Shown here piece by piece: positions 4,085 through 26,032 of a stretch of 33,617 nt of DNA. The notes below the pieces were generated by a model. It was not told where the DNA came from, searched no databases, and saw only the letters and a program-made list of their open reading frames with translations. This DNA comes from a virus (lineage: Duplodnaviria; Caudoviricetes), in IMG/VR virus record IMGVR_UViG_3300046710_000123, positions 1-33,617 of that record. One strand, given 5' to 3'. Every line of letters begins with the position of its first letter. The first letter of the stretch is position 1. A program made the translations under genes and the position numbers.

Positions 4085-4495
4085 ATGGTAGCAACATCAA
4101 CAGTAGTAACAACTAATGAATACGGAGTCGCCGGTGCGGCGCCTGTGGCAGCACAAACAGTTGCATCCACAGGGAATGTAATACTCGTGTGGACTGCAGG
4201 AGTAGCCTCTGGAAACAAATTTTTGAATGACGGAAATACATTACTACTAGTTCAGAACACAGCAGCACCATCAGTTATTGCGACGCTTACCGGCGTTGGA
4301 ACAGACAACTTTGGTGCAATAGCGGACGTAGCAGTGACTCTCGTTGGAGCAACGATACCGTACGAATGGCACGTATTAGGTCCGTTTAGTACCAGACACT
4401 TTAACGATGCCGATGGATATATGACTGTTGTGTTTGGAACCGGCTTCGCAGACATACAGATGTCGGCTGTCAAACTTGGAACAGTTAAGGAGTAA
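4085..4495 (+). CDS. Virion structural protein, paralog of 4510..4884
   Basis: GNKFLNDGNTLLLVQN and LGPFSTRHFNDADGY motifs; located in the tail operon. Confidence 0.7.
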   Translation: MVATSTVVTTNEYGVAGAAPVAAQTVASTGNVILVWTAGVASGNKFLNDGNTLLLVQNTAAPSVIATLTGVGTDNFGAIADVAVTLVGATIPYEWHVLGPFSTRHFNDADGYMTVVFGTGFADIQMSAVKLGTVKE

Positions 4496-4509
4496 AGGGG
4501 TGATAAAAG

Positions 4510-4884
4510 ATGACAAATGCAGAACAAGTATTAACTGTTTATACCTCTACACAGAATGGAACTGACATGACGGCCAACTTCACGCAAATTGCGGACGGTT
4601 CTGGGGTTCTAGGTGCTGGCTCTCGTTTCAAGAACGACGGCAAAACCGTTCTTATTGTTAGAGCGGCAGCAGCGTCACGAACTGTGACAATCGTTGGTCA
4701 GCGAAGAGGGGACTTTGGGGTTCTAACTAGCACCTCGGTTGTTTGCCCGACGGGAGTAAACGTAGTTGGACCGTTTTCAACGCAACACTACAACGATGCC
4801 AGTGGCTATTGTCACATCACGTGGGATAGCACGTCTGTCGGAAGTTTTGTGGCTGCGATGAGTAAGGGCGCAGTTAAAGAATAA
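4510..4884 (+). CDS. Virion structural protein, paralog of 4085..4495
   Basis: GSRFKNDGKTVLIVRA and VGPFSTQHYNDASGY; RBS GGGGTGA. Confidence 0.7.
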   Translation: MTNAEQVLTVYTSTQNGTDMTANFTQIADGSGVLGAGSRFKNDGKTVLIVRAAAASRTVTIVGQRRGDFGVLTSTSVVCPTGVNVVGPFSTQHYNDASGYCHITWDSTSVGSFVAAMSKGAVKE

Positions 4885-5726: not shown

Positions 5727-8700
5727 ATGGTTTCTAATATCCTAGGGGATTTTGTAGTAAGGATTAATGGAGACATAACTGGATTTATCGCTGCGCTTGC
5801 GGGGGCTAAAGCAGGGATGGCGGGTATGGGTGCCGCCGTCGGAGCGTGGAATGCGATTGGTGTTGGAATGTCTGCCGCCTTGACGGTGCCGATTATGGCA
5901 GTTGGTGCCGTAGCACTTGCAAGTGCTCAGGAGGTCGTAAAAGGATATTCTATAATTACCGGGCAGACTGGTGCTACTGGTGCGGAACTCGAAAAACTTA
6001 AGTCGCAATTTCGTGACGTATTTTCTAACGTCCCTCAGAGTGCTACGCAAGTTGCTACTGTAATCGCTACAGTGCAGGACCGCCTACGGGGGATGAATAT
6101 TGACGTAGGTACAACTAGCAAGTCAATGCTAGACCTTGCTCGTGTCACTTCTGAAAGCGCAACTGGTCTTTCAGATGCTGTTAGCAAGATGTTTAAACAG
6201 TGGCCAGAAGCAGCAAAAGATGTTAAGGGCACGATGGAAGCCCTGTTTGATACATTTCAAGCAACACATGTTCCAGTAACTCAACTTGCAACGGATGTAG
6301 ATAAGTTTGGAACCGTTTGGAGAGAAGCGGGATTCAACCTTCGAGAGACAATAGCTATAATGGCCCAGCTCGATGCTGCTGGACTTAACTCAACTGATAT
6401 TGTTCGAGGTATGGCGTATGCGTGGTCAAACTTACAAAAGGGATCTGTGGCTACAAAGGGTGCGTTAGCCGATGCATATACTGTAATATCCGCGAAAACA
6501 AAAGAATTGGGTCTAGACACCAGTAAGTCTAGCGATATGATGCAGGCGTTCTTCAAAGGAATTGAAGACGGAACCATCAAAGATTCTACAGCAGTTCAAT
6601 TGTTTGGTTCACGATTTGGTGCTAATATCACTGGAGCTATACATGAAGGTCGTATTTCTTCTGATGCGTTTATAAAATCAATGGCAGGTATGCCGGGCAG
6701 TTTAGAAAGCACTGCTACAGCGGCACTTACATTTAGTCAAAAACTAGACATACTACGGCACAAATTAGAAGTAGCATTTGCTCCTCTTGGATTTTCACTA
6801 ATTAATATGCTGACTGGGTTTATCCCAGTAATAGAAAGCATTATAGGATCCGTAGCTGGGCTAGTTGGTATATTTGCTACTCTTCCGCAACCGTTACAAA
6901 ATTCATTAATTATACTTGGTCTGTTCTTAGCAGCTATCGGACCAATCGCGCTTATTACCAATCAACTTGCGATAGGGTGGGGGTTAGTGTTAGGCGTCTT
7001 GACACCTATAGCAGCAGCTCTTGGTATTGTCACAGTGGAAACAGGCGCAGCCGCCGCGGCACAGGCACTCTTAAGTTCTGGATTAACAGTGGCGCAAGCA
7101 AATGCGGCACTTTTAGCTTTGGGATACGGGGAAGTAGACGCGGCTATACTGGTAGGAAGTGCAGAAACAGGTGTTTTTAATGCCTTGTGGGCGGCAAATC
7201 CGATTGGTATTATTGTACTGGCAGTAGCAGCTCTTGCAGTTGGTATTTACCTTCTATATACTAATTGGAAGCCATTCCGTGATTTGGTAGATGGCGTGCT
7301 TAATGCCTTGAAAGAGGCTGCGGGGGTATTAGCAAAGATAATTTCAGATATAGTAGGGATCGCTCCAAAAGAGACAAAGATAACAGTAAACGAAGTTAAG
7401 GGGACCCAAGTAACCACGACGACGCCCGAAGGACCGCCCAAAACTACTGAATACGTCGGTCCGAAGTCTCAAACACCAACAGTTGGTGAAACCGGAACTC
7501 AGTTAGGACCAGGTCAATATCTTGGTTCAGATGGAACTGTTCATAATTTTTCTGATATAACTTCACCAACACCTCCACCAACATCTAGAGAACAAGAGAA
7601 AGGTCCGGCAGCACCAGATGTTGGTAAATGGTTTAACGAGCTTGGTCCGTGGGGTCAACGTCTTAAAGAGAGAGTTGCACCGCAAGGAGAACTAGTAACG
7701 GGACAAGTTCAAGTAAGTAAAGAAGGGGAACCGCTTAGAACAGAAGAACGAACATCTAGAAAGGATCCAATGGCCGGTAGCCCGATAGAAGGTCAGCTGA
7801 AAGCACTTGGCAACGTGGATATTGGTTCTGGGGTTGACCAGATCGGAAAAGCATTTGATGATGTTAAGGGTCGGATACTTGGGGTTCCTACGGCGATACA
7901 AAATGGGTTTGCCGAAGCATTTCACAATATTACTACTACTTTAAATACATGGAAAAATGCAATAGGTAAAGTATGGGATGACATTGTAAAAGGCGCTCAA
8001 GAAGCCGGTGGACGAATAGTTGGATTTTTCCAACCAGCGATTAATGCTTTAAAGGCGGCATGGAATACTATTTCTAGTGCCGCAACTACAGCATGGAATG
8101 CAATCTCTGGTGGTGCTAAATGGTTAGGTGGGGTCCTAGGACAAATAGCACATATTATAGGACAAGTGTTCACAATAGCGTGGCTTCTTATATCAAATGC
8201 GGCTAAAAACGCTTGGAATGCACTTGTTGGATTTATTGGACCGATAGTTACGGCTATTGGTAAGAAGTGGGATGAGATTAAAAATGCCGTAGGTAAAAAA
8301 TGGGATGAGATCCGTGAGGCCGTAGGTAAAAAATGGGATGAGATCGTACTTGCGGCTACAACAAAGTTTAATGAAATTAAAGATGCCATTGGTAGGAAAT
8401 GGGATGAAGTACGTGATGCTGTTGGGGCAAAATGGGATGAAATTAAAAATGCTGTAGGCGCAAAATGGGATGAAATTGTAACGGCAGCTACTACCAAGTT
8501 TAATGAAATTAAAAATGCTATTGGTAAAGTATGGGACGGTATACGCGATGGGATAGGTGCTATATGGGATAATATAAGGGACACTATAGGTCGGAAATGG
8601 GATGAAATACGTGATGGTGCTACAACTAAGGGGGGCGAAGTTAAAACTGCTGCTACGAAACCAATAGATGATCTCAAAACAGCCCTTGGAAAAATATGGG

Positions 8701-9185
8701 ACGACATATGGACAAAAATCCAAGAAGTATGGAAGACAATAACAACGTTTTTCAGTGGCCTTACTATTAGTATCCCACAAGGGCTAAAAGATCTTGAAGG
8801 TATTTTAGATAGAATAATTGCGAAACTTTCTCAGGCAAAGGAGGCACCCCCGGATACTGGGAATGCCGGGGCGAAGTCCGCGGGAACCACAAGTGCCTCA
8901 GATGGACCGGTGCCTAAAGCACTCGGAGGCATGGTGAAAGCTGCTGGTGGTTACGGTGTCCTGCAAGGACCACAGATGGTTCTAGCTGGTGAAGCTGGAG
9001 ACGAAGCGTTCGTTCCGTTACAAAGCGGAAGGATACCAGTTCAAATTATTGGAAGAACTAAGGAAGCGCCTGCTGGGCCAACATACATCACCAACGTTAC
9101 AGTAGACAGTGAAGGGATCGTTCGTAAGGTATTCCAAGCAATACAACAGCTCGAAGATTACCACCATTTAAGTCAGAGCATTTGA
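5727..9185 (+). CDS. Tape measure protein
   Basis: N-terminal LGDFVVRINGD, Ala/Gly-rich helices, hydrophobic ANPIG segment, 11-aa Trp repeats, C-terminal ALGG...GPQMVLAGEAGDEAFVPL. Confidence 0.95.
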   Translation: MVSNILGDFVVRINGDITGFIAALAGAKAGMAGMGAAVGAWNAIGVGMSAALTVPIMAVGAVALASAQEVVKGYSIITGQTGATGAELEKLKSQFRDVFSNVPQSATQVATVIATVQDRLRGMNIDVGTTSKSMLDLARVTSESATGLSDAVSKMFKQWPEAAKDVKGTMEALFDTFQATHVPVTQLATDVDKFGTVWREAGFNLRETIAIMAQLDAAGLNSTDIVRGMAYAWSNLQKGSVATKGALADAYTVISAKTKELGLDTSKSSDMMQAFFKGIEDGTIKDSTAVQLFGSRFGANITGAIHEGRISSDAFIKSMAGMPGSLESTATAALTFSQKLDILRHKLEVAFAPLGFSLINMLTGFIPVIESIIGSVAGLVGIFATLPQPLQNSLIILGLFLAAIGPIALITNQLAIGWGLVLGVLTPIAAALGIVTVETGAAAAAQALLSSGLTVAQANAALLALGYGEVDAAILVGSAETGVFNALWAANPIGIIVLAVAALAVGIYLLYTNWKPFRDLVDGVLNALKEAAGVLAKIISDIVGIAPKETKITVNEVKGTQVTTTTPEGPPKTTEYVGPKSQTPTVGETGTQLGPGQYLGSDGTVHNFSDITSPTPPPTSREQEKGPAAPDVGKWFNELGPWGQRLKERVAPQGELVTGQVQVSKEGEPLRTEERTSRKDPMAGSPIEGQLKALGNVDIGSGVDQIGKAFDDVKGRILGVPTAIQNGFAEAFHNITTTLNTWKNAIGKVWDDIVKGAQEAGGRIVGFFQPAINALKAAWNTISSAATTAWNAISGGAKWLGGVLGQIAHIIGQVFTIAWLLISNAAKNAWNALVGFIGPIVTAIGKKWDEIKNAVGKKWDEIREAVGKKWDEIVLAATTKFNEIKDAIGRKWDEVRDAVGAKWDEIKNAVGAKWDEIVTAATTKFNEIKNAIGKVWDGIRDGIGAIWDNIRDTIGRKWDEIRDGATTKGGEVKTAATKPIDDLKTALGKIWDDIWTKIQEVWKTITTFFSGLTISIPQGLKDLEGILDRIIAKLSQAKEAPPDTGNAGAKSAGTTSASDGPVPKALGGMVKAAGGYGVLQGPQMVLAGEAGDEAFVPLQSGRIPVQIIGRTKEAPAGPTYITNVTVDSEGIVRKVFQAIQQLEDYHHLSQSI
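8265..8627 (+). repeat. Eleven 33-bp (11-aa, KWDEIxxAVGx) tandem units with a 132-bp higher-order period
   Basis: AARTGGGATGAR-type units recur every 33 nt; units 1-4 resemble units 5-8 (KFNEIKDAIG/KFNEIKNAIG). Confidence 0.9.
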
Positions 9186-9194
9186 GGAGAAATA

Positions 9195-12100
9195 ATGACA
9201 GAAGTTTGGAAGATTAGGACATCAGACGGAGAAGAATATAATCTTCATACTGGTCCCGCAGCCAGTAAACGTGGTGTAGATCCCACAAAGATATACAATC
9301 TTCAGCAAGGGGGGTACGGGCAATATGGAATGCCTGTGACGATTGAACGTGACAAGGTTCCCCGCGTAGCTGGATCGGAAATTAGAGGTGTAGCGAGGGA
9401 CATTAGAACGATTTATCTACCAATTAGAGTAACAGGGAGAGACGCTGCAGACTTAAGTAGGAACATTTCTAGGTTCAGACAATCTATTGCTCCAGAAAAT
9501 GAATTACAACTTTGGATAACAAATGCTGAAGGCATAACTAAAGTATTATACTGTAGATATGCAAAAGGATTTGAAACTGCTGCAGATGAAGGGAATACAA
9601 CTGGAATTGACTGGAAACTATTTCCATTATATTTAGAAGCAGATGATCCTTATTGGTATGATCCTCCTGGTGGTGAGCTGTCACGTAATTTTTCAACTTT
9701 ACCATGGAACTCTGAATTTTTCACGTTTAATGTCATTACGGGGTTTGCACAAGATGCACACATCGGGGATACAAGAGTTACAATAACAGACACATCAAAC
9801 TTTGCACCAGGAAAAGCTGTGATGCTCCGTGGCAGTAAAATTGTTATTGCTAATGAGATTGATGTTTCAGAAGAAGCTGAACTCACAGACTCTACTGCAG
9901 AACCAATTCCAACGAATGTTTATTTGGCAGTAAGTACCGAAACCCCACAATTAAATCAACCAATCCAAATATCTGGAAAGGTTGTAGACATGCAAACCGG
10001 GAAAGGTTTGGCAGATCGGATAATCGAACTGACCAGAACATTTCTAGGTGGAGGTAGCAATCAAACAAATACGCAAACTTCTACAATAGTTCAAACGCAA
10101 ACCACCGGAAACGTGTCTGGCTCTGGTAATGTTATAACCTTTGGATCCCAATCACAAAGTGTTACTCAAACTAGTACATCAGTTAATATTTGTATTACTG
10201 ATTCTAAAGGGAATTTTAACTTCACTGATATACTTGGGTTGGATGGTATATTTAATTATAAAGCGCATTTCAAAGGATCGGACTGGAGCCATCTGGGACC
10301 TTCTGGAGATAGCCATCCGGGTCCGGATTTTGGTCATCATGGTGAATCAGAACATTCCAAAACTATACGGGTAGGATCAACAACCGCAACGACTCTCACA
10401 CTTGTCACTTCTAACACAAACCCTGGGCGCAACGTTCAATTCAAACTTTACGGATTACTTACCACAAGTGGTAAACCAATAAAGAATGCGCATATTCGAC
10501 TTTATAAATCTTCTCCAAGTGGGGGTAATGAGATAGGACAAACGGCTACGAATTCTAACGGGGAGTACTCTTTCCTTCGATCAGAACCGGTTGATTCGTG
10601 GTGCACATATGAAGTTGTCTTTAGTGGCGCAGGTGGGATGCCGGATGCTGACATCCAAAAGCGGAAGATGTGGATTTTTTATGATAACCTATACCGAAAG
10701 ATGTTTGATATGTATGATGCGCTCTACGCGAGGATGTATAAATTAACACACGCTGACGCATATCTACCTAAAAACAACCCGTTTTTAAACAAACCGAATC
10801 CTTTTGGGGACTATCCACCCGGGGGTTACGCAATAGCGTCGGCAAAGATACATGTTAAGATCGGATCTCCATCGTATCCAATAAATTACAGAGTTGCGTT
10901 AACTCCTAATCAAATAAATGATGGAGAGATCCAATACTTTGGGAACTCTACAACTGGAACAAAACCAACATTCAACTCAGTTATATTGATTGCAGAATCT
11001 GAATACGAAGTTGGTACGTCAGGAACTCGTTCAACTTATGCAGCAGAACGTGCGACAATCGTAGCTCAAGGGTTCACTCCTATGATTGATATCTCCGTTG
11101 TGACTGATAAACTTGCAGCACTATCGGATAAAGAAACGTGGATTCAAGGACTTTATGGTGTGGGATGGAGATACTTCTGCGGGCTTAACTCTAAAGGACG
11201 CTCTGGCGATCCTGCATACCTACGCGGGCTTCATAGCGATATAAATTATATTAACTACAATTCCGCTCCAAGAGGTTCCACTGGAACGCAACCGGATATT
11301 TCAGGAACTGGTGTTTATAAAAACAGTTTTGAATGTATGTCAGACTTGGCAGTTTCATACATTGAACAGTTTACAACGGCGGCGTGGGGAGCAACTCCAT
11401 CAGTCAAAAGCGGGCTTCTTGCTCCTATAATAATGAATCCGACCGTTAATCCGATGCTAGTAAATTCTGTAGCAGATGCATATCCAGCATATCGTGATAT
11501 ACTTGATTGGACTTATGCAGAATCTGTTGGGATGGACAATTTTACAGTATGGTTCCATCCTAAATACAATTCACCTAGTGCAAGAGACATCGTTCCAGAA
11601 CAACTTAGTATATATAAATTTCTTTTGTTTGATGACATGCTCCAACAGATGCAAGAAGCATACCCGCCGATTCCAATAAGTGGGGCGGGATGGATAGAAC
11701 CTACTGTAAAGGCGGTATCACTCTCACTTGATTACTCTCTTAACCCACTTACATTCACGGGGGTACTTACGTGGATAAAAGATGAAACTCCAATTCCTGG
11801 TGCCGAAATTGCATTACAATTACACGCATATTCAAAGATTGGTGATATGTCCCGCGAAAGTACACCATTATCACACGTAAGTTCCGCCAGTGTACTCAAA
11901 GAGCAGAAAGTTATCTTATTCGATAGTACATCTGGGTTTATTGCAGGAGCAACTGTTGAGATCTCTGATTCCATACTCCACCACGAAACTGGAGTAATCG
12001 CCACCGTAGCAGCGGGAAGTATAACACTAGTCGATAACCTCACAAAGGATTACAATATAACCACTCCTGAAATAGTTTATCCAATCGTCGCACAAATAAC

Positions 12101-14081
12101 AATTCCTGCTGGGCAAAAAGTGGTCCCATTGAATGATACTAGTGGGTTTATTATTGGTGGGGATATTACAATCTCGGATGCAGCGCATTCTGAAACTGGG
12201 GTGCTAACAAGTATCCAAACAAACGCAAGTTTAACACTTACTTCAAATCTTACCAACAGTTATTCTTCGCCAACGGTGACGCAAACAAGCTGGCCTTCTG
12301 GGCAAAAAGTGATTCATGTAGCACAAACAGTCGATTTCGCTGTTGGAAACTCCATTATTGTTGCCGATACTACCAACACCGAGGCTGCAAATACAATAGT
12401 TTCAATAAGTGGGGGAGCACTCACACTTACTAACAATTTAGTACATAAATATGCTATGGATGCAACTGTGAACAATACGGGTAGTAGTGCGTGGAGAACT
12501 ATCGCTACTACCGCAACAGATATTGATGGTAAATATTCAGTAAATATAGGGCGTGTTATAAAACGCAGTAGCGATAATGCAGCAAAGAATCAAAAGATTG
12601 TTAAAACAATAGAAACAAACGGTTTTATTGTTGGTTCACATGTAAAGATATCTGATGCTCTGCATTCAGAAATAGGGGTGATAGCAAGTATAACTACTAA
12701 CACAAGTATAACACTTGTCTCAAATCTTACTCAAGATTATATAACACCACTAATTACTGCATATAATCCGCCAGGAGAACATTGGTATAGGGTATATTTT
12801 GCCGGAGGATCGTTAGGCGGGAAAACGTACATGTCGTGTTATACTCCAACAGACGATGGGATACAGATATTACATCTTACTGATTATGAAACACTAGCAA
12901 TATCTCAAGCAAACACGGTAGCTTCAGTGGATAGTCCAACCGTATTAACCCTCAACACACCACTGTCAGAAGAGTATCTTGTGTCAAATGAGTGTTATAT
13001 AACGGAAACTGATATGATAGACACATTCCTTAATCCAACAGATACCGTCACGCGAACTATGAGTAATGGGATTGAACTTGTGGTATTCTGGTTACGTGGT
13101 TGCCCACCGTGTTACGGTGTTAAAAACCAAGTTTCTGCCCTTCAGACGGAATTTGCAAACATATCTACAACATTCGTAGAAATAGAAGATCACTGGGCGG
13201 ATCCCATAACACACTTAGTCCCACCACATTATAATCCCGTTACAGGGGCATTATTAGTTGCAGAACATAGCGCAATTGATGAAATGGGGTATCTAAATAT
13301 AGGGATGGATGATGCAGCAGTAAGGTATCCAATGGCGTATAACTTTGCACTAAAATGTGGACCATTTTATCCAAAACCGAGTGTTATCGGCGGCATAATG
13401 CCCGCGGTTCTATGCGTATACAGAGATGGATTATTTATTAAAGCGTGGTGTGGAGTGCATACTACTGGAATTGATCCAGTTTCTAAGATAACAATACAAG
13501 ACACTTGCGGGCCACGACTCACATGGAAGTTTGGTACAAGTTATATCGCAAATAAAGTTATAATCATTAATCGTGGAGACGACAGCGCATATCCAGTATG
13601 GACAATAACCGGACCTGGTCGATGGCCAACGTTTAAGAATATCACAACCGGTGAATCAATTAGTTTGGATTACGATCTGATCGCGGGTGAAACAGTTGTC
13701 CTAGATACTCGCGAATTTGCACATACATGTTATAGCACTCGGTCATCAAGTTATACCGGAACTGGATATATGGAATCGGTCACGTGCCCAACATGTAAAG
13801 GGAAAGGCGCAATACCGTCATCGTGTGAAAACTGTGGGGGGTCTGAGATATGTCCAACTTGCCACGGTTCGGGAACTGTCAATCGCTGGGTTGTTGGTAC
13901 GCTAGGAACAACTTCTGATGTTAGCGGTATGTATAATTTACGTTACGCAATAGATATAAATGAACGGTATATGTGGGGTTTTGCTCCAGGTGCAAACATT
14001 ATAGAAGTTGAGATGGGTGTTACAGAATATGGAAAAAGCAATATTAACATGACACTTATGCAAAGATTTGAAGGTGCATAA
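9195..14081 (+). CDS. Giant distal tail protein (Dit) with nested inserted domains
   Basis: Follows the TMP. Dit N-part (RDIRTIYLPI...LYCRY...LEADDPYWYD) and C-part (INRGDDSAYPVWTITGP...GETVVLDT...WGFAPGANII) flank about 1270 aa of insertions. Confidence 0.85.
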   Translation: MTEVWKIRTSDGEEYNLHTGPAASKRGVDPTKIYNLQQGGYGQYGMPVTIERDKVPRVAGSEIRGVARDIRTIYLPIRVTGRDAADLSRNISRFRQSIAPENELQLWITNAEGITKVLYCRYAKGFETAADEGNTTGIDWKLFPLYLEADDPYWYDPPGGELSRNFSTLPWNSEFFTFNVITGFAQDAHIGDTRVTITDTSNFAPGKAVMLRGSKIVIANEIDVSEEAELTDSTAEPIPTNVYLAVSTETPQLNQPIQISGKVVDMQTGKGLADRIIELTRTFLGGGSNQTNTQTSTIVQTQTTGNVSGSGNVITFGSQSQSVTQTSTSVNICITDSKGNFNFTDILGLDGIFNYKAHFKGSDWSHLGPSGDSHPGPDFGHHGESEHSKTIRVGSTTATTLTLVTSNTNPGRNVQFKLYGLLTTSGKPIKNAHIRLYKSSPSGGNEIGQTATNSNGEYSFLRSEPVDSWCTYEVVFSGAGGMPDADIQKRKMWIFYDNLYRKMFDMYDALYARMYKLTHADAYLPKNNPFLNKPNPFGDYPPGGYAIASAKIHVKIGSPSYPINYRVALTPNQINDGEIQYFGNSTTGTKPTFNSVILIAESEYEVGTSGTRSTYAAERATIVAQGFTPMIDISVVTDKLAALSDKETWIQGLYGVGWRYFCGLNSKGRSGDPAYLRGLHSDINYINYNSAPRGSTGTQPDISGTGVYKNSFECMSDLAVSYIEQFTTAAWGATPSVKSGLLAPIIMNPTVNPMLVNSVADAYPAYRDILDWTYAESVGMDNFTVWFHPKYNSPSARDIVPEQLSIYKFLLFDDMLQQMQEAYPPIPISGAGWIEPTVKAVSLSLDYSLNPLTFTGVLTWIKDETPIPGAEIALQLHAYSKIGDMSRESTPLSHVSSASVLKEQKVILFDSTSGFIAGATVEISDSILHHETGVIATVAAGSITLVDNLTKDYNITTPEIVYPIVAQITIPAGQKVVPLNDTSGFIIGGDITISDAAHSETGVLTSIQTNASLTLTSNLTNSYSSPTVTQTSWPSGQKVIHVAQTVDFAVGNSIIVADTTNTEAANTIVSISGGALTLTNNLVHKYAMDATVNNTGSSAWRTIATTATDIDGKYSVNIGRVIKRSSDNAAKNQKIVKTIETNGFIVGSHVKISDALHSEIGVIASITTNTSITLVSNLTQDYITPLITAYNPPGEHWYRVYFAGGSLGGKTYMSCYTPTDDGIQILHLTDYETLAISQANTVASVDSPTVLTLNTPLSEEYLVSNECYITETDMIDTFLNPTDTVTRTMSNGIELVVFWLRGCPPCYGVKNQVSALQTEFANISTTFVEIEDHWADPITHLVPPHYNPVTGALLVAEHSAIDEMGYLNIGMDDAAVRYPMAYNFALKCGPFYPKPSVIGGIMPAVLCVYRDGLFIKAWCGVHTTGIDPVSKITIQDTCGPRLTWKFGTSYIANKVIIINRGDDSAYPVWTITGPGRWPTFKNITTGESISLDYDLIAGETVVLDTREFAHTCYSTRSSSYTGTGYMESVTCPTCKGKGAIPSSCENCGGSEICPTCHGSGTVNRWVVGTLGTTSDVSGMYNLRYAIDINERYMWGFAPGANIIEVEMGVTEYGKSNINMTLMQRFEGA

Positions 14082-16475
14082 ATGGTAATTCATGAAGATC
14101 GGTGTATAGTTAAGTATTCTAATTATCCTACTACTGGAACTACAGTTACGAACGAAGGTATTGGTGGAGTTATGTATAACGGAACTGCTAATGATAATAA
14201 TTATTCATCATTACCAAGCGGTGCTACATGTTTTGCGTTTAATAATACCACCGATGCCGTCGTAATCCCATCGGGTGGAGTAAAAACTAATTCCCCGTTC
14301 ACAATTGAATTAGTATTCTACCTTAATTCTATTAGTCCAACGAATGGTTGTATTCCACTTGTAGGTGCTGGGTGGAACTTTTATTTTCAAATAGGCCCAG
14401 ATGGGAGCGGGATCATCTTTAAACAGGGACCCCCAGCAGATTGGACAAAATATATTCTCGGATCTTTTTCGGCAGGAATTTTTACCTCTAACAAGTGGTA
14501 TCATGTGCAAATAACGTGGGACACATCAGTTTTCACTTCAATACCATCTATGAAGGTTAATAATATCGATATAACAACATACAAGGGAACTGTGGGAACT
14601 ATAACACAATGGGTCGGGGATACGGCGTTTAATATCGGTGGAGTATCAACTTGGCCACCTACCGTAAAAATAGCGTTATTCCGTTTTCATGATCGCATCC
14701 TTACTTCAGAAGAACTTACTGATAATTACTACGCTGACAACTGGCGTTACACATATGTAAAACCGTTCCAATCCGTTCCTGAAGAAGAAGAAGAAGATGC
14801 CAGTATCCCACCCGTTGTTTCCCGTTTGCCAAAAACATCACGACCAAGCGCGTTAGTCGACGCGGACTGTAGAATAATCATACGAAATGCGGATCTTGAA
14901 GATGTTGGGGAAATCACTCGGTTCTCTCAGTGGGTTCACACGCTAAAACTTAATGAAATAAGTAGTTGGCAGCTTGATATGACTACTGACGATTTTCGGA
15001 AGTATGACATTGATGAAAATACTGGGATCCTTTTTTACCGCGACAATGACCTACTTATTGATGGTCCAATAATGCCAAATGGGATTAAACATACATTATC
15101 TTCTGGTGTTGAAACTACAACTATAATCGGGGGGTGTGATCTTGCCTATTTGGTTGGGCGAATTTGTTATCCTGTTGTTACTGGTCCATTGTTTGATACT
15201 AAACTCGAAAGTTGGCGTTTTGGTGTTCAACGTTCTGCGGTAGGAATTAATTCTGCAATCAAAACAGGATGTGAAACCAAAGAAGAATATGATATCCCGC
15301 TTGTTTTGGACAATGCCGAAAGTTATTTAGTTGGATCAACTTGTAATTGGCTTACGGAAGATGGGCATCTTGTTACTGAATGGCATGATGAAAAGTTGAA
15401 GGGAAGTAACAATCGTGATGAACAATATCTATTTAATACAGCACCGATAGTGATGACTGGTGTGGATCTTAGCACAAACACAATTACGATAGATGTTCCG
15501 CAGGGGGTGTCCAACGGAGGAACACAACCAAGGGAACTTTACGCACCGCCAATCCCAGCAGGGGGGAGAATTTATCAAACATCTGGAGGGATTGTTAACG
15601 ATCCAGATTATGAAGGGTTCGATGTTAGAACGGGAACTGCCGATGATGTTGTAAAACAACTTGTTTGGTTTAATGCTGGACGTGGTGCTTGTGCAGACCA
15701 TTTTGGAACTAGAGCTATACCAAAACTTGAAATCGCGGACCCCAACCAGTTTGGGTCGACAGTAACGGCAAACAGTCGTGGAGAAACATTACTAACACAA
15801 GTCCAGAACGTGTGTCTAAGTGGAGGGATCAATTTTAAGATCACCCAAAAAGGCATGGGACAAGAAGAAAAGACGCTCGTATTCGACACCTTTGCCGGAG
15901 CCGATTTGTCAGTAGATGGAAATCTTATATTTAGCATCGAAGGCGGGAACCTTAAAGAATACACTTATTCATACGGTCCGCCGACCGCAAACTATGTTTG
16001 GGGCTGTGGTCCAAATACCGGCCCAGATAAACTTATGTTGCCAAGCGGGAATCAAAGATCCATAGATGATTATGGTAGATGGGAAAGTTGGATTAGTAAT
16101 GTAACCGCAAGTGCTGGTAGCACTGCTGAGAATCCCGATCCGCCTGCAACAATTGCCGCTAATATGGTTCAAGCTAATAATATAGCACTCGCAAAATCGG
16201 TCATCAATGCAAACCTGACACTTACGATACAAGAAACTGATCAAGTTCGTTATCCCCGTGATTTTTCTATTGGAGACAAAGTTGGGATAATGGTTGGCAA
16301 ATCACAGAAAAAACAACTTAATGAAATAATTACTACTCTTGTTTATTCAATACCTGGACAAACAGGAACCGCGTCCGGGTCTGCATTGATGGCTGTTCTT
16401 ACTAAACAGGAAACACGGTCTATGTTACAACAAAGAGCCACTAGTAAATTATTACAACAAATGGCTATGGTGTGA
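14082..16475 (+). CDS. Baseplate hub (ReqiPepy6 Gp37-like) with N-terminal LamG/ConA-like domain
   Basis: aa 1-225: FTIELVF...NKWYHVQITWD...FRFHDRILTSEE (LamG). After an acidic linker: LKLNEISSWQL...FSIEGGNLKEYTYSYGPPTANYV...YGRWESW...DFSIGDKV. Confidence 0.8.
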   Translation: MVIHEDRCIVKYSNYPTTGTTVTNEGIGGVMYNGTANDNNYSSLPSGATCFAFNNTTDAVVIPSGGVKTNSPFTIELVFYLNSISPTNGCIPLVGAGWNFYFQIGPDGSGIIFKQGPPADWTKYILGSFSAGIFTSNKWYHVQITWDTSVFTSIPSMKVNNIDITTYKGTVGTITQWVGDTAFNIGGVSTWPPTVKIALFRFHDRILTSEELTDNYYADNWRYTYVKPFQSVPEEEEEDASIPPVVSRLPKTSRPSALVDADCRIIIRNADLEDVGEITRFSQWVHTLKLNEISSWQLDMTTDDFRKYDIDENTGILFYRDNDLLIDGPIMPNGIKHTLSSGVETTTIIGGCDLAYLVGRICYPVVTGPLFDTKLESWRFGVQRSAVGINSAIKTGCETKEEYDIPLVLDNAESYLVGSTCNWLTEDGHLVTEWHDEKLKGSNNRDEQYLFNTAPIVMTGVDLSTNTITIDVPQGVSNGGTQPRELYAPPIPAGGRIYQTSGGIVNDPDYEGFDVRTGTADDVVKQLVWFNAGRGACADHFGTRAIPKLEIADPNQFGSTVTANSRGETLLTQVQNVCLSGGINFKITQKGMGQEEKTLVFDTFAGADLSVDGNLIFSIEGGNLKEYTYSYGPPTANYVWGCGPNTGPDKLMLPSGNQRSIDDYGRWESWISNVTASAGSTAENPDPPATIAANMVQANNIALAKSVINANLTLTIQETDQVRYPRDFSIGDKVGIMVGKSQKKQLNEIITTLVYSIPGQTGTASGSALMAVLTKQETRSMLQQRATSKLLQQMAMV

Positions 16476-17005: not shown

Positions 17006-18070
17006 ATGGGGAAATATTTTGCAGCACATTATGGTGTTTTAGACAACCTAGGCTGGATGGCTTCAAAGGGATTTAATGAAGCAGGTCTTGTTGTACCAGA
17101 TGGACAGCTCCCATCACCTGCGAGTATCCATAATGCGGGCATTCGCTACGCTACGCTTAATATCTTCAATGACGGTAGCTCCGCTGCCTCACAGATCGGT
17201 GCAGCAGGGGGACCATATGCGGGATATTATCAGTCAATCGCTGGTGCCGGATGGGATATGATTGCCGGTGAGGGATGCGGGGGAGATGTAATCAACACCG
17301 TGTGCAATTACCGGTGGTATGTTAATTATGGTGGCGATCAACAAAATAATATGTACGCGCCGCCTTGGAATCATCCGGCAGATAGGCGACATCTTGATTA
17401 TATCGAAGCTTATACGGCAGGAAATTGTCTTAGCAACCCGGGCGGAGTGGCGGGGTGCATCAACGCCGCAAGAGCTGCTGGGTCGTTACACTTGGGGATA
17501 CTTATAGGGGACTGGTGTTTGGGCGATGCAAGTCAGTATATCAGTCTCGTCGATAGTACCGGCTGCGATACGATTTGTTTCTGGGGTGGGTACGGACAAC
17601 CATCATCACGTATGCAGGGATTGGCAGACCAACTAATCGGTCACTACGGCGCAGTAAAATGGGGTGGTGGCGGAGGTGGAGCAGCACCAACAAAGGCAGC
17701 AGGAGCAGCAGCAGCGGCACCTGCAAAACATCCTGTCATTCACTGTCCTTGTCGGCATATCTGGCTTGGTATATGGGGTGTTAAGGGTTCAGAGATGTCA
17801 GAACATCTTGAGTGGGATGTTAAGTTAGTTGGACAAGCAGGATTTGTTGATGACAATAATCAATGGATTGCCGGGAAACCATACACAGGTATGCTCGAAT
17901 TGTGGACGGCTAACGAAGATAAGTTATGGAAACTAAATGACTTCTGGCCCGACGCCAACGGAGCATTTTCATTACTTGTAATGAGTGATACGGCAGAAAA
18001 AAGGCATTATGGTATAAAGTTTGCTCCTGGTTGGAAAGGAGAACCATATCGAACAGTAATGGAGTATTAA
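17006..18070 (+). CDS. Putative glycoside hydrolase-like TIM barrel plus Gly/Ala linker plus Ig-like domain
   Basis: Alternating beta/alpha pattern with Glu89 (IAGEG) and Glu134 (DYIEAY) at strand ends; GGGGGGAAPTKAAG linker; C-terminal PDANGAFS...RHYGIKF. Confidence 0.5.
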   Translation: MGKYFAAHYGVLDNLGWMASKGFNEAGLVVPDGQLPSPASIHNAGIRYATLNIFNDGSSAASQIGAAGGPYAGYYQSIAGAGWDMIAGEGCGGDVINTVCNYRWYVNYGGDQQNNMYAPPWNHPADRRHLDYIEAYTAGNCLSNPGGVAGCINAARAAGSLHLGILIGDWCLGDASQYISLVDSTGCDTICFWGGYGQPSSRMQGLADQLIGHYGAVKWGGGGGGAAPTKAAGAAAAAPAKHPVIHCPCRHIWLGIWGVKGSEMSEHLEWDVKLVGQAGFVDDNNQWIAGKPYTGMLELWTANEDKLWKLNDFWPDANGAFSLLVMSDTAEKRHYGIKFAPGWKGEPYRTVMEY

Positions 18071-18071
18071 G

Positions 18072-18590
18072 ATGGTAATAGCATGGTGCTTTGTTCAGGA
18101 CGGGTGTTCGCATTGCGTAGACCTTGAAAATGCTGTAGCTGCCGCAGGTTTGACTTCACAAGTTGAATTCAGTGGAAACAATCCTTGTGGATCTGGTTCA
18201 ACACCCGCAACGAAGACTGCTGCAGGTTGTTTTATGTATCCAAATTGTGATTCTAACTGCCAACTAAATGCGATCAAAGCGGCAGCGTCCGCTGGAACCA
18301 AAGCAGCAACCCCTGCAGCTCCAGCAAAAACTGCCGCAGCAGCTCCCGCGGGAAAGACTACTGCTGCACAGGACAAGGCACAGGTTGCGTCGAGGACAAA
18401 TGTATGGTCAAATGATGTAGTTATAAATTGGGGGGAACGAAATCCAAGACCGGTAATTGCACAAACCCCTGTGGGGTGGCAACCTCCGGATGCTCAGTTA
18501 ACGCCCGTTTTACCATTACCACCAGAGATTGTTACGGGGGTAACCGTAGCCTTACGAGATCATCAGAAGGGTAAAAGTAGGAAAGGTTAA
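18072..18590 (+). CDS. Glutaredoxin/thioredoxin-like CxxC protein with Ala/Pro/Lys linker
   Basis: N-terminal strand then GCSHC helix (WCFVQDGCSHCVDLE), a TP candidate for the cis-Pro, and extra cysteines. Confidence 0.5.
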   Translation: MVIAWCFVQDGCSHCVDLENAVAAAGLTSQVEFSGNNPCGSGSTPATKTAAGCFMYPNCDSNCQLNAIKAAASAGTKAATPAAPAKTAAAAPAGKTTAAQDKAQVASRTNVWSNDVVINWGERNPRPVIAQTPVGWQPPDAQLTPVLPLPPEIVTGVTVALRDHQKGKSRKG

Positions 18591-21503: not shown

Positions 21504-22748
21504 GTGGCACTAAATGTATCAAACGCGTTGATTATATACGGACAAGACGTAATCGGTGGTGCATGTGTGTGGCCATCTATTGGAACGACGGTACCAAATG
21601 GTGGAACATTAGGAACGAACTGGTATGGCAAGGAAACTGCTAACCACTACAGTACAATTCGTACATATACTGGACAGGCTATCACAGCTAATAATGATGT
21701 AGTCACTGTTGAGCGTGGCGCACCTGGTATAATATTGTCTTATGACCGCGCACAATCAGTTACAGTAGAATGGGTATTTACTTGGAACTCCGCGAGTGCG
21801 ACCAAATCATACCTTTTTTCGAAAGGTTCAGACCTGTATGTATCATATGACCAAAACGCCAACCTGATGGTATTTCACCGTAGGGCGCAATCAGGTAATC
21901 GTGATGAATGGTCTTGCAAACCGGGCTTTGTTAACGGTAAAACATACGTCCTTCAAATTGCTGGTGGAGCACCAAATACAGCAATAACTGTTATGCTCAA
22001 CAACGTTAGTGTACCAGTGACTCATACCATGGTTGCTGCATCATACGACACCTCATGGGGACCATATGCAGATGAGGATCTTAAAATAATGAACAGTTAT
22101 TCTCAGAACGCTGCTGCACGATGCACATTATATCTATTTCGGTTTCATAATACTAAGCTATCTAGTCTTCAGATGAGTCAAAATTATGACATAGACTGGG
22201 GGCGTGTGTGGACACTTGTGTCGGTTTCCGCACCACTACCCGCATCTGTACCTGTTACGCCCCGCCCGGTTAAATACACCGCAACTAACAGTCCCACTGC
22301 TGGAGCAACGGTTCTTAATTTTGCAGACATAACCGGTTTTACAGTAGACACAGAAGTTACGATAGGGGTAAATGATGGAAATCCGTTGCATTTTGACATT
22401 AAGAGGATATATAGTATAACCACAACTACGGCACCTGCTGGTAGTATAACACTGGTCAACGGACTTGCAAATGCATATACAACCCCTCCCGTTTCATTGA
22501 TTGTAATGCACAATCAAACGTGGTATGAAAATGTTACCCCAACAAGTTCCGGCAATGTAATTGGTCCAACTACGTCAATCGGACCAATAGCGTTACCAAT
22601 AGCGGGGAACGTAGGAGCGGCGGCACAAACACCGACGCGCGTCGTTGCAGCACGTTATGCAGATGTACCACCTCGACCGCACTATACTCTGACACATACG
22701 TTAACATATCGAGTTACACTTAATACTATTGTAGAGGAAGCACAATAA
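21504..22748 (+). CDS. LamG/ConA-like tail protein with inserted beta-module
   Basis: SVTVEWVF...YLFSKG...LFRFHNTKLS aligns by eye with the hub N-domain; later AGATVLNFADITGFTV...GSITLVNGLANAY. Confidence 0.7.
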   Translation: MALNVSNALIIYGQDVIGGACVWPSIGTTVPNGGTLGTNWYGKETANHYSTIRTYTGQAITANNDVVTVERGAPGIILSYDRAQSVTVEWVFTWNSASATKSYLFSKGSDLYVSYDQNANLMVFHRRAQSGNRDEWSCKPGFVNGKTYVLQIAGGAPNTAITVMLNNVSVPVTHTMVAASYDTSWGPYADEDLKIMNSYSQNAAARCTLYLFRFHNTKLSSLQMSQNYDIDWGRVWTLVSVSAPLPASVPVTPRPVKYTATNSPTAGATVLNFADITGFTVDTEVTIGVNDGNPLHFDIKRIYSITTTTAPAGSITLVNGLANAYTTPPVSLIVMHNQTWYENVTPTSSGNVIGPTTSIGPIALPIAGNVGAAAQTPTRVVAARYADVPPRPHYTLTHTLTYRVTLNTIVEEAQ

Positions 22749-23386
22749 TGACATCAGATTTGACTATAGATGAAGGATCATCAGTATATGTTACTGTTTA
22801 CCCAACATATGCTAATGGAGCACCAGTAAACTTAACGAATGCAACAATAACGTGGGTTGCTAGTGTTAACGGTGTGCAACAGGTAAAAAAAGATAGTGCC
22901 ATGATGACTATACTACTTGGAACTCAATTAGCTACGACGGCTGCTGCAAGTGCAGCGGCAGATCAAAATGTTATCCGGTTCACTAAAATTTCTGCATTTG
23001 GTAATGATGTAAATAGAAAGTTGATCACAGATTTGGTAATTGGAGATATCGTAACAATCATAAATAATTCTTCCCAAGAAGAATATTGTACAGTTGCATC
23101 GATCAATATCGTAACCAAAGATGTAACTATGGAAACCAATCTACTTTACACGCACGAAGCTGGAAACGCTATAAAGAGAATTATACAGCAATTTGAATTT
23201 ATTCTTTTACCCGGAGACACAACATTACCATTGACCAAATCATATGGTAATGCGATAATTTGGGATCATATGGCGCAAGCAACGTTTCCAGAAGGGCTTA
23301 GTGCAGAAAATATATATCAAGAACCAACAACTATGATCCTCCTTCGTGGAAAACTTCGAATTTATCCTATACTTGATATAGTCTGA
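22748..23386 (+). CDS. BppU N-domain-like baseplate protein with inserted beta-module
   Basis: LTIDEGSS...NGAPVNLTNATITW...FILLPGDT...LLRGKLRI; TAATG overlap with the upstream gene. Confidence 0.65.
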   Translation: MTSDLTIDEGSSVYVTVYPTYANGAPVNLTNATITWVASVNGVQQVKKDSAMMTILLGTQLATTAAASAAADQNVIRFTKISAFGNDVNRKLITDLVIGDIVTIINNSSQEEYCTVASINIVTKDVTMETNLLYTHEAGNAIKRIIQQFEFILLPGDTTLPLTKSYGNAIIWDHMAQATFPEGLSAENIYQEPTTMILLRGKLRIYPILDIV

Positions 23387-24235: not shown

Positions 24236-24813
24236 ATATTTGCACGAACTGCAATAAACCATTTGAATCCAACGGATTTAAAATGTGTGGATCATGTCGA
24301 GAACACTTCCGCGAAAAAACCCGTAGATGGCGCAAAGCAAATCCAGAAAAGGTAAAAGAAATTGGACGTAGAGCAGATAAAAAACGTTATGTTATAAAGC
24401 GCAAATATGATAAATATTGGAGAAACAAGAATCCTAAAAGAGTTCGTGAATATAAACTCCGTGATAAAGAGAAACACGCAGAACGAATACGAAACTATAT
24501 GATACAATGGTGGAAAGAGCACCCAGAAAAACGGAGAATCTACGAACACAATCGCAAAGCAAGAAAACGAGAAAACGGCGGTACATTAACTTTTGGAGAA
24601 TTAAATGAACAATTCGAACTACAAGAAGGATTGTGTTTTTATTGCGGAAGACTCCTAGATGATAATTCCACACACATTGATCATAGAGTTCCAATTTCTC
24701 GCGGCGGATCTAATAGTATAGAAAACATAGCACTTTCTTGCCCATCTTGCAATCTTAAAAAACACACAAAAACAGATATTGAATTTTTACAGGAGATAAA
24801 CAATGACAGATGA
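24232..24813 (+). CDS. HNH endonuclease
   Basis: CFYCG...HIDHRVPISRGGSNSIENIALSCPSCNLKK; N-terminal CxxC...CxxC and basic repeats; true start ATG 24232 (ATGA overlap). Confidence 0.9.
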   Translation: MNICTNCNKPFESNGFKMCGSCREHFREKTRRWRKANPEKVKEIGRRADKKRYVIKRKYDKYWRNKNPKRVREYKLRDKEKHAERIRNYMIQWWKEHPEKRRIYEHNRKARKRENGGTLTFGELNEQFELQEGLCFYCGRLLDDNSTHIDHRVPISRGGSNSIENIALSCPSCNLKKHTKTDIEFLQEINNDR

Positions 24814-26032
24814 AAATAAAGAAGAAGATACTTTTGATCCAAAACAGATTAAATTTGGATATAAACGTGGACTACCAGACCCACGTGACTACCGATATGA
24901 AAAGGCAGTTAAGATCGTAAAGCTTCCGGCGAGTGCTGATTTGCGCCCTTTGATAAAGCGCGTCAAGAATCAAGGTGGATTAGGTTCTTGCGTCGCACAC
25001 GGAACCACTTCATGCTTTGAAGCAACCCAAATAAAATTATCGGGCGCGGATTTTCCTGGGTCTAGGCTTGAGGTTTATGAGAATGGAAGGATTCTTGGAG
25101 GTTATTATCCAGGAGATAACGGGTGTGAGGTAAAAAATGGTGTGCAAGCAACATTTAAGTATGGTGTAGCACACGAAAATTTGTGGCCGTATATAGAAAG
25201 CAAATTTGATGATCCGATACCAGAAAACGTAGCCGCAGATGCAGTAAAAGCAAAAAGTTTGAATTATTATTTAGTTGACTCTGCAAGTGGGTATGCTGCA
25301 ACGCTTACTAACATTAAGAACGCACTTGGAGTCACCGGACTTCCAGTTGTATTCGGTACCCCCGTTTACAACAGCATATTTAATGTTGGTTCCGATGGTA
25401 TGATCCCAATGCCTAGCGGTGCGAGTGTTGGTGGACACTGTATGCTATTTGTTGGTTATGATGATTCCAAATCTGCCATCCTGACACTTAACAGTTGGGG
25501 GACTGGATGGGGAATGAGTGGCTACGGCTGGCTACCGTACGGGTATGTCACACAAGGGTTAGTCAGGGACAATTGGGTAATCGCCACAGAAAGTCAACTT
25601 GGTCCTACACCCCCAACTCCAACCCCACCAGTTGCAGCAGATGGAACCAGCCCTGCCGCAACGGTGCTCGGTACAGACACCTATATGTTTGTTCAAGGAA
25701 CGGACAAGGCACTGTATTACAGGACAGCAGCAAGTGACGCGTGGAAAGCACTTGGAGGCATCTTAACCAGCGGACCCGCAGCAGTAACACTTGGCAACGA
25801 TATATACATGTTTGTTAGAGGAACAGACAATGCACTGTGGTACCGAACTATGGCAAATGGCACGTGGCACTCTCTATCGGGTATATTAAGTAGTGCGCCA
25901 GCAGCCGCAATTTCTGATGGGAACATTATGGTGTTTGTACGTGGTTCAGACAAAAAACTATACGCAAAGACCCGGAAAACATCTAGTGGAACGTGGGGAG
26001 ATTGGACTTCATACGGCGGAATAATCAACTGA
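24803..26032 (+). CDS. Papain-family (C1A) cysteine peptidase with C-terminal lectin-like propeller repeats; candidate lysin
   Basis: Gln57/Cys63 (NQGGLGSCVAH), His212 (GGHCML), Asn230 (NSWG); PTPPTPTPP linker; three repeats PAA...MFVRGTDNALWYR...W..L.G. Confidence 0.88.
   Translation: MTDENKEEDTFDPKQIKFGYKRGLPDPRDYRYEKAVKIVKLPASADLRPLIKRVKNQGGLGSCVAHGTTSCFEATQIKLSGADFPGSRLEVYENGRILGGYYPGDNGCEVKNGVQATFKYGVAHENLWPYIESKFDDPIPENVAADAVKAKSLNYYLVDSASGYAATLTNIKNALGVTGLPVVFGTPVYNSIFNVGSDGMIPMPSGASVGGHCMLFVGYDDSKSAILTLNSWGTGWGMSGYGWLPYGYVTQGLVRDNWVIATESQLGPTPPTPTPPVAADGTSPAATVLGTDTYMFVQGTDKALYYRTAASDAWKALGGILTSGPAAVTLGNDIYMFVRGTDNALWYRTMANGTWHSLSGILSSAPAAAISDGNIMVFVRGSDKKLYAKTRKTSSGTWGDWTSYGGIIN

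Follow-up and report, generated by a model that had tools for sequence, protein, structure and literature searches.

Distal tail proteins (Dits) carrying carbohydrate-binding modules (CBMs), the so-called evolved Dits, are an established precedent for host binding by tailed phages (PMC9692632, PMC9437275, PMC12474359; here and below, each source is cited for the accessible part of its text). Published examples measure about 500, 512, 548 and 659 amino acids (aa) and contain one or two CBMs; in the O. oeni OE33PA Dit, the CBM is flanked by two further domains (PMC9692632, PMC9437275, PMC8540738, PMC10688798). The present study concerns a Dit gene at positions 9195-14081 (+ strand) of a 33,617-nucleotide (nt) stretch of tailed-virus DNA (Caudoviricetes), hereafter the window, which is the entire IMG/VR virus record IMGVR_UViG_3300046710_000123 and has an estimated completeness of 50%. 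The gene is a single open reading frame (ORF) without stop and its product has 1628 aa. As in the evolved Dits of P335 C41431, BK5-T, skunaviruses, S. thermophilus phages, L. casei J-1 and OE33PA, the protein is encoded in the slot between the tape measure protein (TMP) and Tal and has a belt and galectin core, with an insert located, as in siphophage evolved Dits, in or just before the galectin domain. It differs from them by about 1,260 inserted aa arranged in three nesting levels, by a TIM barrel, a thioredoxin domain and a zinc finger, and by a probable archaeal host. No CBM family was found in the insert with Pfam; the folds found there are immunoglobulin (Ig), TIM, rider and thioredoxin.

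Three other described systems offer points of comparison. The distal tail protein of Bxb1 (PDB 9D93 chain M) is the top Foldseek match, and the second VIA match (Z 19.0), of the predicted model of P0010, a 574-aa relative of the window Dit. Since the 271 aligned residues of chain M are spread across the range 8-681, this protein of about 670 residues must also contain a large internal insert; it is described as having three additional domains, arranged as a cage, that become flat against the wall of the host (PMC13252515, PMC12474359). The window protein differs by its length and by its four kinds of folds in a branched nest. The second system is the rider domain of a Klebsiella phage K1 lyase (PF24149; PDB 7W1C), a barrel made up of two sheets with three strands each, which projects out of the beta-helix, stabilises the trimer and lines the glycan pocket (PMC8822698). 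Like the beta-module of the window Dit, it is a six-stranded barrel that sits in a host-fold loop, and so are the inserted barrels of the Mystique tail tube, the Chi tail tip, the JBD30 baseplate, the VP1 capsid and GH110 PpaGal. In the window, however, one copy is split by about 1,000 aa, four more lie within an Ig domain, and Pfam scores are weak. Finally, contractile tail sheaths (T4 gp18 type, diffocin CD1363) have a Russian-doll domain order (PMC6088184), but they belong to another protein family with other folds, and their nest is fixed and linear whereas the window arm is variable and branched. In the literature, chiefly the main texts of openly readable papers, no description was found of the window Dit family, of a Dit with a TIM barrel or a thioredoxin, or of self-nested rider repeats. 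A mixed, branched nest including an enzyme fold and a thioredoxin, with a probable archaeal host and relatives ranging from bare to four-fold decorated, was thus not found described.

The window Dit almost certainly consists of a Dit core carrying a branched arm nested three levels deep. The homologues compared were eight long and seven shorter proteins, together with loci from viral and metagenome contigs. The N-part of the core (belt and start of the galectin domain; aa 1-176; 9195..9722, +) matches phrog_106 (E 1e-16) and phrog_33 (E 0.003) and is 39% identical to residues 1-173 of P0011. The C-part (galectin domain; aa 1439-1628; 13509..14081, +) matches phrog_33 (E 4e-9) and PF22768 (E 0.0014). 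Three blocks, aa 1-176, 1444-1514 and 1581-1627, are collinear with P0011, a 307-aa protein which itself passes the PF22768 cut-off. Therefore, one large insert and the zinc finger are additions to the core. The main insert spans aa 176-1439, where P0011-P0015 have a short loop of the galectin domain. The relatives form a graded series: bare Dits of 304-316 aa (P0011-P0015, L057), middle forms (P0010; L052, 579 aa) with an unbroken beta-module, a thioredoxin domain and a zinc finger, and long forms of 1231-1628 aa in which the beta-module is split by Ig1-Ig2-TIM-Ig3. The P0010 model (predicted local distance difference test, pLDDT, 74.5) aligns over residues 1-574 to solved Dits, among which Douge (Z 21.5), Bxb1 and SPP1 (Z 17.3) and also those of monocin, p2, 80alpha and TP901-1, seven in total with Z 14.2-21.5 (VIA). 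Thanks to this match of a relative and to the collinearity with P0011, the ends of the window protein are predicted to form a Dit fold. By analogy with the family, six copies are assumed to form a hexameric ring at the tail tip. As a further variant, the 1608-aa Dit of L009:10001-14824 has about 370 extra residues inserted before Ig1, comprising an extra Ig and a further, possibly propeller-like domain.

The first level of the insert begins with a rider-type beta-barrel which is itself split. Its N-half (aa 177-214; 9723..9836, +) aligns to P0010 and L052 and covers positions 6-33 of a module hidden Markov model (HMM). It is followed by an outgoing stalk strand and an acidic linker (aa 215-239; 9837..9911, +), the strand being long in the AlphaFold model of the arm (model residues 39-50) and the linker of low confidence. 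The return stalk strand and the C-half (aa 1232-1274; 12888..13016, +) align to P0010 from residue 220 and cover HMM positions 36-64. Window aa 1-213 and 1242-1337 align to residues 1-211 and 220-313 of P0010, so that about 1,028 aa of the window stand in place of 8 aa; the same is true with L052. In 13 long Dits, the HMM (69 positions, built from 12 intact copies) finds complementary halves, at about positions 2-34 and 30-66. With the best of 300 locally shuffled sequences as a control (6.0 bits), the C-halves exceed the control in 12 of 13 long Dits, with the break at the same model position (33-34), and the N-halves in only four of 13. In the window, the C-half scores 7.0 bits, above the control, and the N-half 5.1 bits, below it. 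Because of this low N-half score, it is P0010 and L052, and not the motif alone, that establish the split. The model of the arm (aa 170-1290, 47 sequences; mean pLDDT 73.6, predicted TM score 0.59) gives confident halves (pLDDT 78-95 and 79-96) though as many as 1,000 residues lie between them. The long strands that it shows at aa 208-219 and 1230-1245 are compatible with a two-stranded stalk. Concerning the fold, residues 177-251 of P0010 comprise six strands, and the module (175-253) matches the K1-lyase rider with Z 12.7 (2.1 Å, 79 residues) as well as inserted barrels of other virion proteins (VIA). At the sequence level, the Pfam rider model PF24149 gives weak matches in three of 16 module copies (best E 0.0096), none of them among the window Dit's four; PDB, PHROG and Pfam sequence searches returned no match above noise, none turned up among 50,697 GenBank phages when the three tandem modules were searched by tblastn, and Atlas leads (0.91) point to unnamed clusters. 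As an inserted barrel, the beta-module is of a generic kind among virion proteins. In P0009 and L005/L012, the split module is followed by a further intact one.

Between the two halves lie Ig1, Ig2, the TIM barrel and Ig3. Ig1 (aa 240-395; 9912..10379, +) shows beta-sandwich strands in the model and contains a His/Gly-rich loop as well as a loop insert rich in N/Q/T (about 10050-10187, +), both missing from most relatives; N/Q/T-rich segments occur in Ig1 of the window and P0003 and in Ig2 of P0006, P0008, P0009 and P0017. In Ig2 (aa 399-557; 10389..10865, +), which matches PF13620 below cut-off (E 3e-5), the last strand is preceded by an inserted amphipathic helix (about 10632-10826, +; model residues 315-349) that is found in most relatives. 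Ig3 is present in three pieces, a (aa 833-878; 11691..11828, +; pLDDT 86-95), b (aa 1099-1118; 12489..12548, +; pLDDT 93-95) and c (aa 1194-1226; 12774..12872, +), the last one ending where P0020 and P0021 end. All pieces are confidently modelled (pLDDT 77-95) and are joined in P0002, P0007 and P0008. Two third-level inserts separate them. The first (aa 892-1092; 11868..12470, +) contains three tandem intact rider-type barrels, with full-length matches to the HMM that these copies helped build; the second (aa 1124-1187; 12564..12755, +) contains a fourth one, 54% identical to copy 1. The four modules (aa 896-957, 965-1028, 1028-1091 and 1125-1185) are 26-54% identical to each other. Ig3 contains no module in P0002, P0007, L008, L009 and L019/P0008, one in P0003-P0006 and P0009, and two in L005/L012 and P0017; four, as three plus one, are found in the window only, among the relatives found. 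A Foldseek comparison with BFVD gave only generic Ig-domain matches (TM at most 0.16 of the query).

After the split barrel, and in series with it at the first level, comes a thioredoxin-fold domain (aa 1290-1438; 13062..13508, +). It was recognised thanks to residues 268-394 of the P0010 model, which match thioredoxins with Z up to 9.9 (VIA); Pfam, PHROG and PDB sequence searches gave no match for this segment. A CxxC motif (CPPC) before a helix and a conserved proline before a strand accompany the predicted fold, and W1299, CPPC and M-P1403 are invariant in the 14 nested Dits, as are C1388, C1419 and six cysteines of the zinc finger. The latter, an insert of CxxCxGxG type (about 13740-13934, +; PF00684, E 4e-5), interrupts the C-part of the Dit and is missing from P0011-P0015. 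DnaJ-type zinc fingers (PF00684) have four CxxCxGxG repeats. The window finger has three CxxC and scores 24.3 bits against a cut-off of 32.7, and hence falls outside the DnaJ type. P0004, P0005 and P0017 have a second finger within the thioredoxin domain. Another cysteine-containing protein is encoded at 18072-18590 (+); this small product has other cysteines in addition to a CxxC close to the N-terminus, and an 885-aa protein of L052 ends in a stretch matching its last 40 aa.

Much of this organisation had been proposed from motif reading in a preliminary description, and every motif quoted there is at the indicated place: the module halves at aa 188 (nt 9756) and aa 1236 (12900) to 1261, the Ig3 pieces at aa 852 (11748), 1100 (12492) and 1193 (12771), CPPC at aa 1303 and the first CxxC of the finger at aa 1531. 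The splitting of the Dit, that of the beta-module and the cutting of Ig3 by 3+1 intact modules are all borne out by uninserted relatives, and the comparison of insert content among homologues that it called for yields the graded series. The thioredoxin and the zinc finger are indeed added; the former, however, follows the split module instead of lying inside it, and the latter is a separate insert of the C-part. The branched three-level arm holds. The multi-function adhesion attributed to it finds no support here: no known CBM family was found, the beta-module is generic and TIM catalysis is probably lost. Similarly, the idea that this protein goes far beyond known evolved Dits is justified for its length and its mix of folds, not for nesting as such.

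The second-level chain is centred on a (beta/alpha)8 barrel (aa 561-826; 10875..11672, +), glycosidase-like and likely inactive, with eight strands mostly at pLDDT ~90. The model leaves no doubt as to the fold, all of the top 50 VIA matches covering this barrel, but does not fix the family, be it GHL10/Cwp19, GH114, GH18 or GH20; on the arm model, Foldseek points to GH13, GH66 and Ig-rich proteins, and sequence searches of Pfam, PHROG and PDB gave no match. A profile search of 1.84 billion representatives retrieved 73 proteins. The nearest relatives that are not Dits, P0019-P0021, consist of the TIM barrel and the same Ig; residues 491-859 of P0002 align without a break to residues 44-404 of the 406-aa P0021. 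An organism label was available in four of the ten clusters looked up, and was always a Halobacteriota archaeon metagenome-assembled genome (MAG). A strongly hydrophobic N-terminal stretch occurs in 12 of 13 hand-picked members of the barrel family. In a quick tree (62 rows; a more careful search was unfinished), the 14 nested barrels form one clade (support 100), grouped with P0019-P0021 and a second viral group (100). The simplest reading of these sequence relationships is that TIM-Ig3 was captured from an archaeal host, and the host of the virus is probably an archaeon.

Tail-tip proteins acquired this barrel on more than one occasion. Besides the nested Dits, a second Dit lineage carries it, which includes nine proteins of 851-1764 aa (P0035, P0040, P0041, P0045, P0054, P0058, P0063, P0069 and P0070), seven of them with a weak PF22768 match, in which an uninterrupted Dit is followed by Ig-Ig-TIM-Ig; no genomic locus was found for this lineage. 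In the second group, the module is found inside Ig3 of P0045, in the loop of the fourth copy of the window, and of P0069, and inside the barrel of P0058; within its Ig3, P0069 apparently has a split module. In P0023, the barrel occurs together with a prophage-tail domain.

The fate of the active site can be followed across these groups. In GH114 and GH191, an acid pair at the C-terminal barrel end is catalytic, the Asp/Glu pair of GH114 being, by numbering, next to strands 4 and 6 (PMC12054363). The parent family of the window barrel resembles these and Cwp19/GHL10 by its fold and by the acids that it conserves where strands 4 and 6 reach their C-terminal ends; it differs from GH114 by a Glu instead of an Asp at strand 4 and by the loss of the acids in nested Dits. 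Among the 58 other members of the family, 50, 46 and 45 retain the Glu residues of strands 3, 4 and 6, respectively (with 5, 9 and 11 gaps due to fragments), and so do 8, 9 and 9 of the nine proteins of the second Dit lineage; in the 14 nested Dits these residues are found in 0, 0 and 2, with three more having Asp at strand 6, and a strand-3 Asp is retained in all 14. In the strand-4 region of the window protein, no acid lies between W658 and R669, and nested barrels are devoid of the aromatic pair which the rest of the family retains after strand 6. Judging from these alignments, the conserved acid pair of TIM-barrel glycoside hydrolases is missing from nested Dits. Since the strand 3 and 4 Glu are absent from all 14, their barrel is likely a dead glycosidase used for binding.

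A distant TIM-barrel paralogue (17006..18070, +; family HMM E 7e-7, Z=1000) is a candidate active enzyme and a candidate glycosidase of the virion. It retains Glu at strands 4 and 6, as do 5/5 and 4/5 members of its group, respectively, and its homologues follow Tal in L052, L056 and L057. In related viruses, a second gene belonging to the main TIM family stands by itself on the strand that does not encode the Dit, and it keeps all three Glu (G001:C1:36090-36779 and G003:C1:26677-27363). Further along the window, 24803-26032 (+) encodes a papain-family C1 peptidase (PF00112), possibly a lysis or envelope enzyme; its C-terminal beta-repeats resemble, by eye, those on P0025 and P0026, two secreted members of the TIM family.

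On these grounds, a glycan-binding arm equipped with a disarmed host barrel is the explanation we favour, with some reservation, its parts on adhesion, host and order of acquisition being inferred. In this model, a loop of the galectin domain bears the arm, and six arms would ring the tail tip. As the relatives and the models show, the Dit core is broken by the rider-type barrel and the thioredoxin, the barrel at one hairpin by Ig1-Ig2-TIM-Ig3, and Ig3 at two loops by three and one further barrels. The split barrel would act as a socket, from which a two-stranded stalk would lead the Ig-Ig-TIM-Ig chain out and back, thereby holding the TIM barrel at a distance from the ring. As for TIM-Ig3, this unit would have been acquired whole from a secreted host protein; its acid pair would then have been lost and its groove kept for reversible binding, so that each arm would grip, via the predicted inactive barrel, surface glycans of the probably archaeal host. 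The extra barrels on Ig3 may be optional decorations or spacers of variable copy number. Cleavage of the envelope, if any, could be left to the paralogue: because the acids of the nested barrel are lost while the 17006-18070 product keeps both Glu, it may be proposed that the Dit arm binds and the paralogue cuts. A broader version of this model can be put forward only tentatively. Viruses of an uncultured Halobacteriota lineage would capture an entire secreted TIM-Ig glycosidase of the host and disarm it into a lectin carried in a split rider barrel on the Dit, the paralogue behind Tal being left to cut, and the rider would be a general plug-and-socket brick able to insert into loops of Dit, Ig and TIM domains, to accept inserts of 1,000 residues and to nest in itself up to six deep in bacterial secreted enzymes.

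Several observations weigh against the favoured explanation. In the model of the arm, barrel copies 2-3 have pLDDT 57-84, and copies 1 and 4, where the alignment is mostly 1-3 rows deep, are below 50 and appear unfolded; the pairing of the two halves of the split barrel is deduced from confidence and strand pattern, not from contacts. The best VIA matches of the TIM barrel are tied between Cwp19 (Z 14.8; 3.5 Å, 228 residues), pyruvate kinase (14.6) and GH20 (14.4), the Atlas lead to GHL10 scores only 0.81, and the glycosidase nature of the parent family is deduced from fold and residue pattern. The window protein still has D632 and E713, and the strand-4 column of the alignment adjoins a 2-3 residue insertion. 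The MAG proteins labelled Halobacteriota could be proviral or misbinned. When GTDB genomes were scanned using the barrel alignment, only two of 67 pattern matches were confirmed, both weak (E 4e-4), bacterial (Chlorobi) and not used, so that the scan did not confirm an archaeal origin. Finally, the size series does not establish an order of gains, and P0010 is not basal. In a tree of the core (307 columns, 19 rows, three fragments left out), P0010 falls inside the long-Dit clade (support 100/100), and P0002 and P0003 branch earlier than it with modest support (97/73). P0010 is therefore not supported as an ancestral intermediate, and may represent a clean secondary loss. L005 and L012 have common inserts and different N-parts, which suggests recombination.

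The same nested architecture might alternatively serve a structural purpose. The arm would then be a cage or scaffold around Tal on which tail-tip proteins dock, the thioredoxin would make or exchange disulfides within the Cys-rich tip and the TIM barrel would bind a protein or nothing. This seems rather unlikely to us. The K1-lyase rider does stabilise its trimer (PMC8822698), and a barrel or cage is shaped by domains of the Bxb1 Dit (PMC13252515, PMC12474359); the invariance of CPPC, C1388, C1419 and the finger cysteines also fits, as does the absence from nested barrels of the aromatic pair kept elsewhere in the family. However, viruses with Dits of 307-309 aa retain the same Tal and post-Tal genes, and therefore the arm has no essential scaffold role. 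In addition, the K1 rider also lines the glycan pocket (PMC8822698), and the barrel was recruited repeatedly to tail-tip proteins.

It may also be asked whether the barrel is still an active glycosidase which would digest the host envelope by means of an alternative pair of acids, such as D632 or E601 together with E713. D632 is indeed invariant in the 14 nested Dits, E601 is present in 13 of 13 rows of alignment A5, and the complete acid set of the second Dit lineage makes active barrels on Dits plausible. However, E601 is not conserved outside nested Dits and, with the Glu counts given above for strands 4 and 6, an active nested barrel appears improbable. As for a linear string of domains whose apparent halves would be chance look-alikes, the outcome against which the preliminary description had set its proposal, the low N-half scores and the reading of model confidence without contacts speak for it, but it is rejected as highly improbable in view of the joined halves of P0010 and L052, the whole Ig3 of P0002, P0007 and P0008, the common break position of the 12 C-halves above the control and the two models, that of P0010 aligning to whole Dits.

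Modules of rider type are also found apart from the Dit. In the window, the genes at 21504-22748 (+) and 22748-23386 (+) contain one each (aa 260-330 and 65-136), with homologues in several related loci, and weak partial matches were seen in Tal of L052 and L056. Bacterial enzymes (P0186, P0172, P0140 and others) contain the module too, 40 of 58 matches being accompanied by a GH54 domain (PF09206). In P0186 (GH27), it is apparently nested in itself and apparently located within the catalytic domain: five N-parts (six by eye) about 51 aa apart are followed by six C-parts about 23 aa apart. P0172 (GH78) has about five plus five module parts, the innermost of which enclose another domain. In bacterial enzymes, the module is broken near model position 47, as compared to 33-34 in Dits.

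The genomic setting is that of a tail module. Head-tail connector, major tail and tape-measure genes come first, the TMP gene (5727..9185, +; PF10145 and many PHROG TMP matches) immediately preceding the Dit ORF, and the downstream neighbour encodes a Tal/Gp37-like hub with an N-terminal LamG domain (14082..16475, +; PF14594, PF13385). The position of the Dit directly after TMP and before Tal is the same in L052, L056 and L057. The nested ORF is not an assembly artefact. Parts of the window DNA are present in ten runs, and the three with at least half of the words, two of them possible sources, are labelled peat metagenome; no RNA run is among the listed holders. One contig of run X2, possibly the source run, covers 9190-14300, and a contig of run X3 spans 11739-13317, including all four intact modules, with no difference. 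No contig joining across a module was seen in the four of ten runs examined. Furthermore, the protein identity of only 26-54% between intact copies excludes an assembly duplication. At the insertion points, there are no long DNA repeats or inverted repeats, the module copies being 71-75% alike over short stretches, and the sequence gives no sign of a mobile DNA element. Upstream, two small genes at 4085-4884, between the major tail and tail chaperone genes, are also found in L052, L056 and L057; they have no Pfam match, and one has a weak PHROG tail match.

In a single gene slot, the graded series from 304 to 1,628 aa shows which of the Dit, rider-barrel and Ig loops tolerate very large inserts, and it opens both the folding of split domains and the growth of a protein by insertion to direct testing. 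The coexistence of active-looking and dead-looking forms of the barrel offers a route to test the conversion of an enzyme into a lectin on a virion. If the host assignment is correct, this Dit would give a rare view of how a tailed virus recognises an uncultured archaeal lineage, and the undescribed secreted TIM-barrel family, with its conserved acids, would be a probe of the envelope of that lineage. If the rider is indeed a general brick, one small domain would build branched, matryoshka-like proteins in viruses and in cells.

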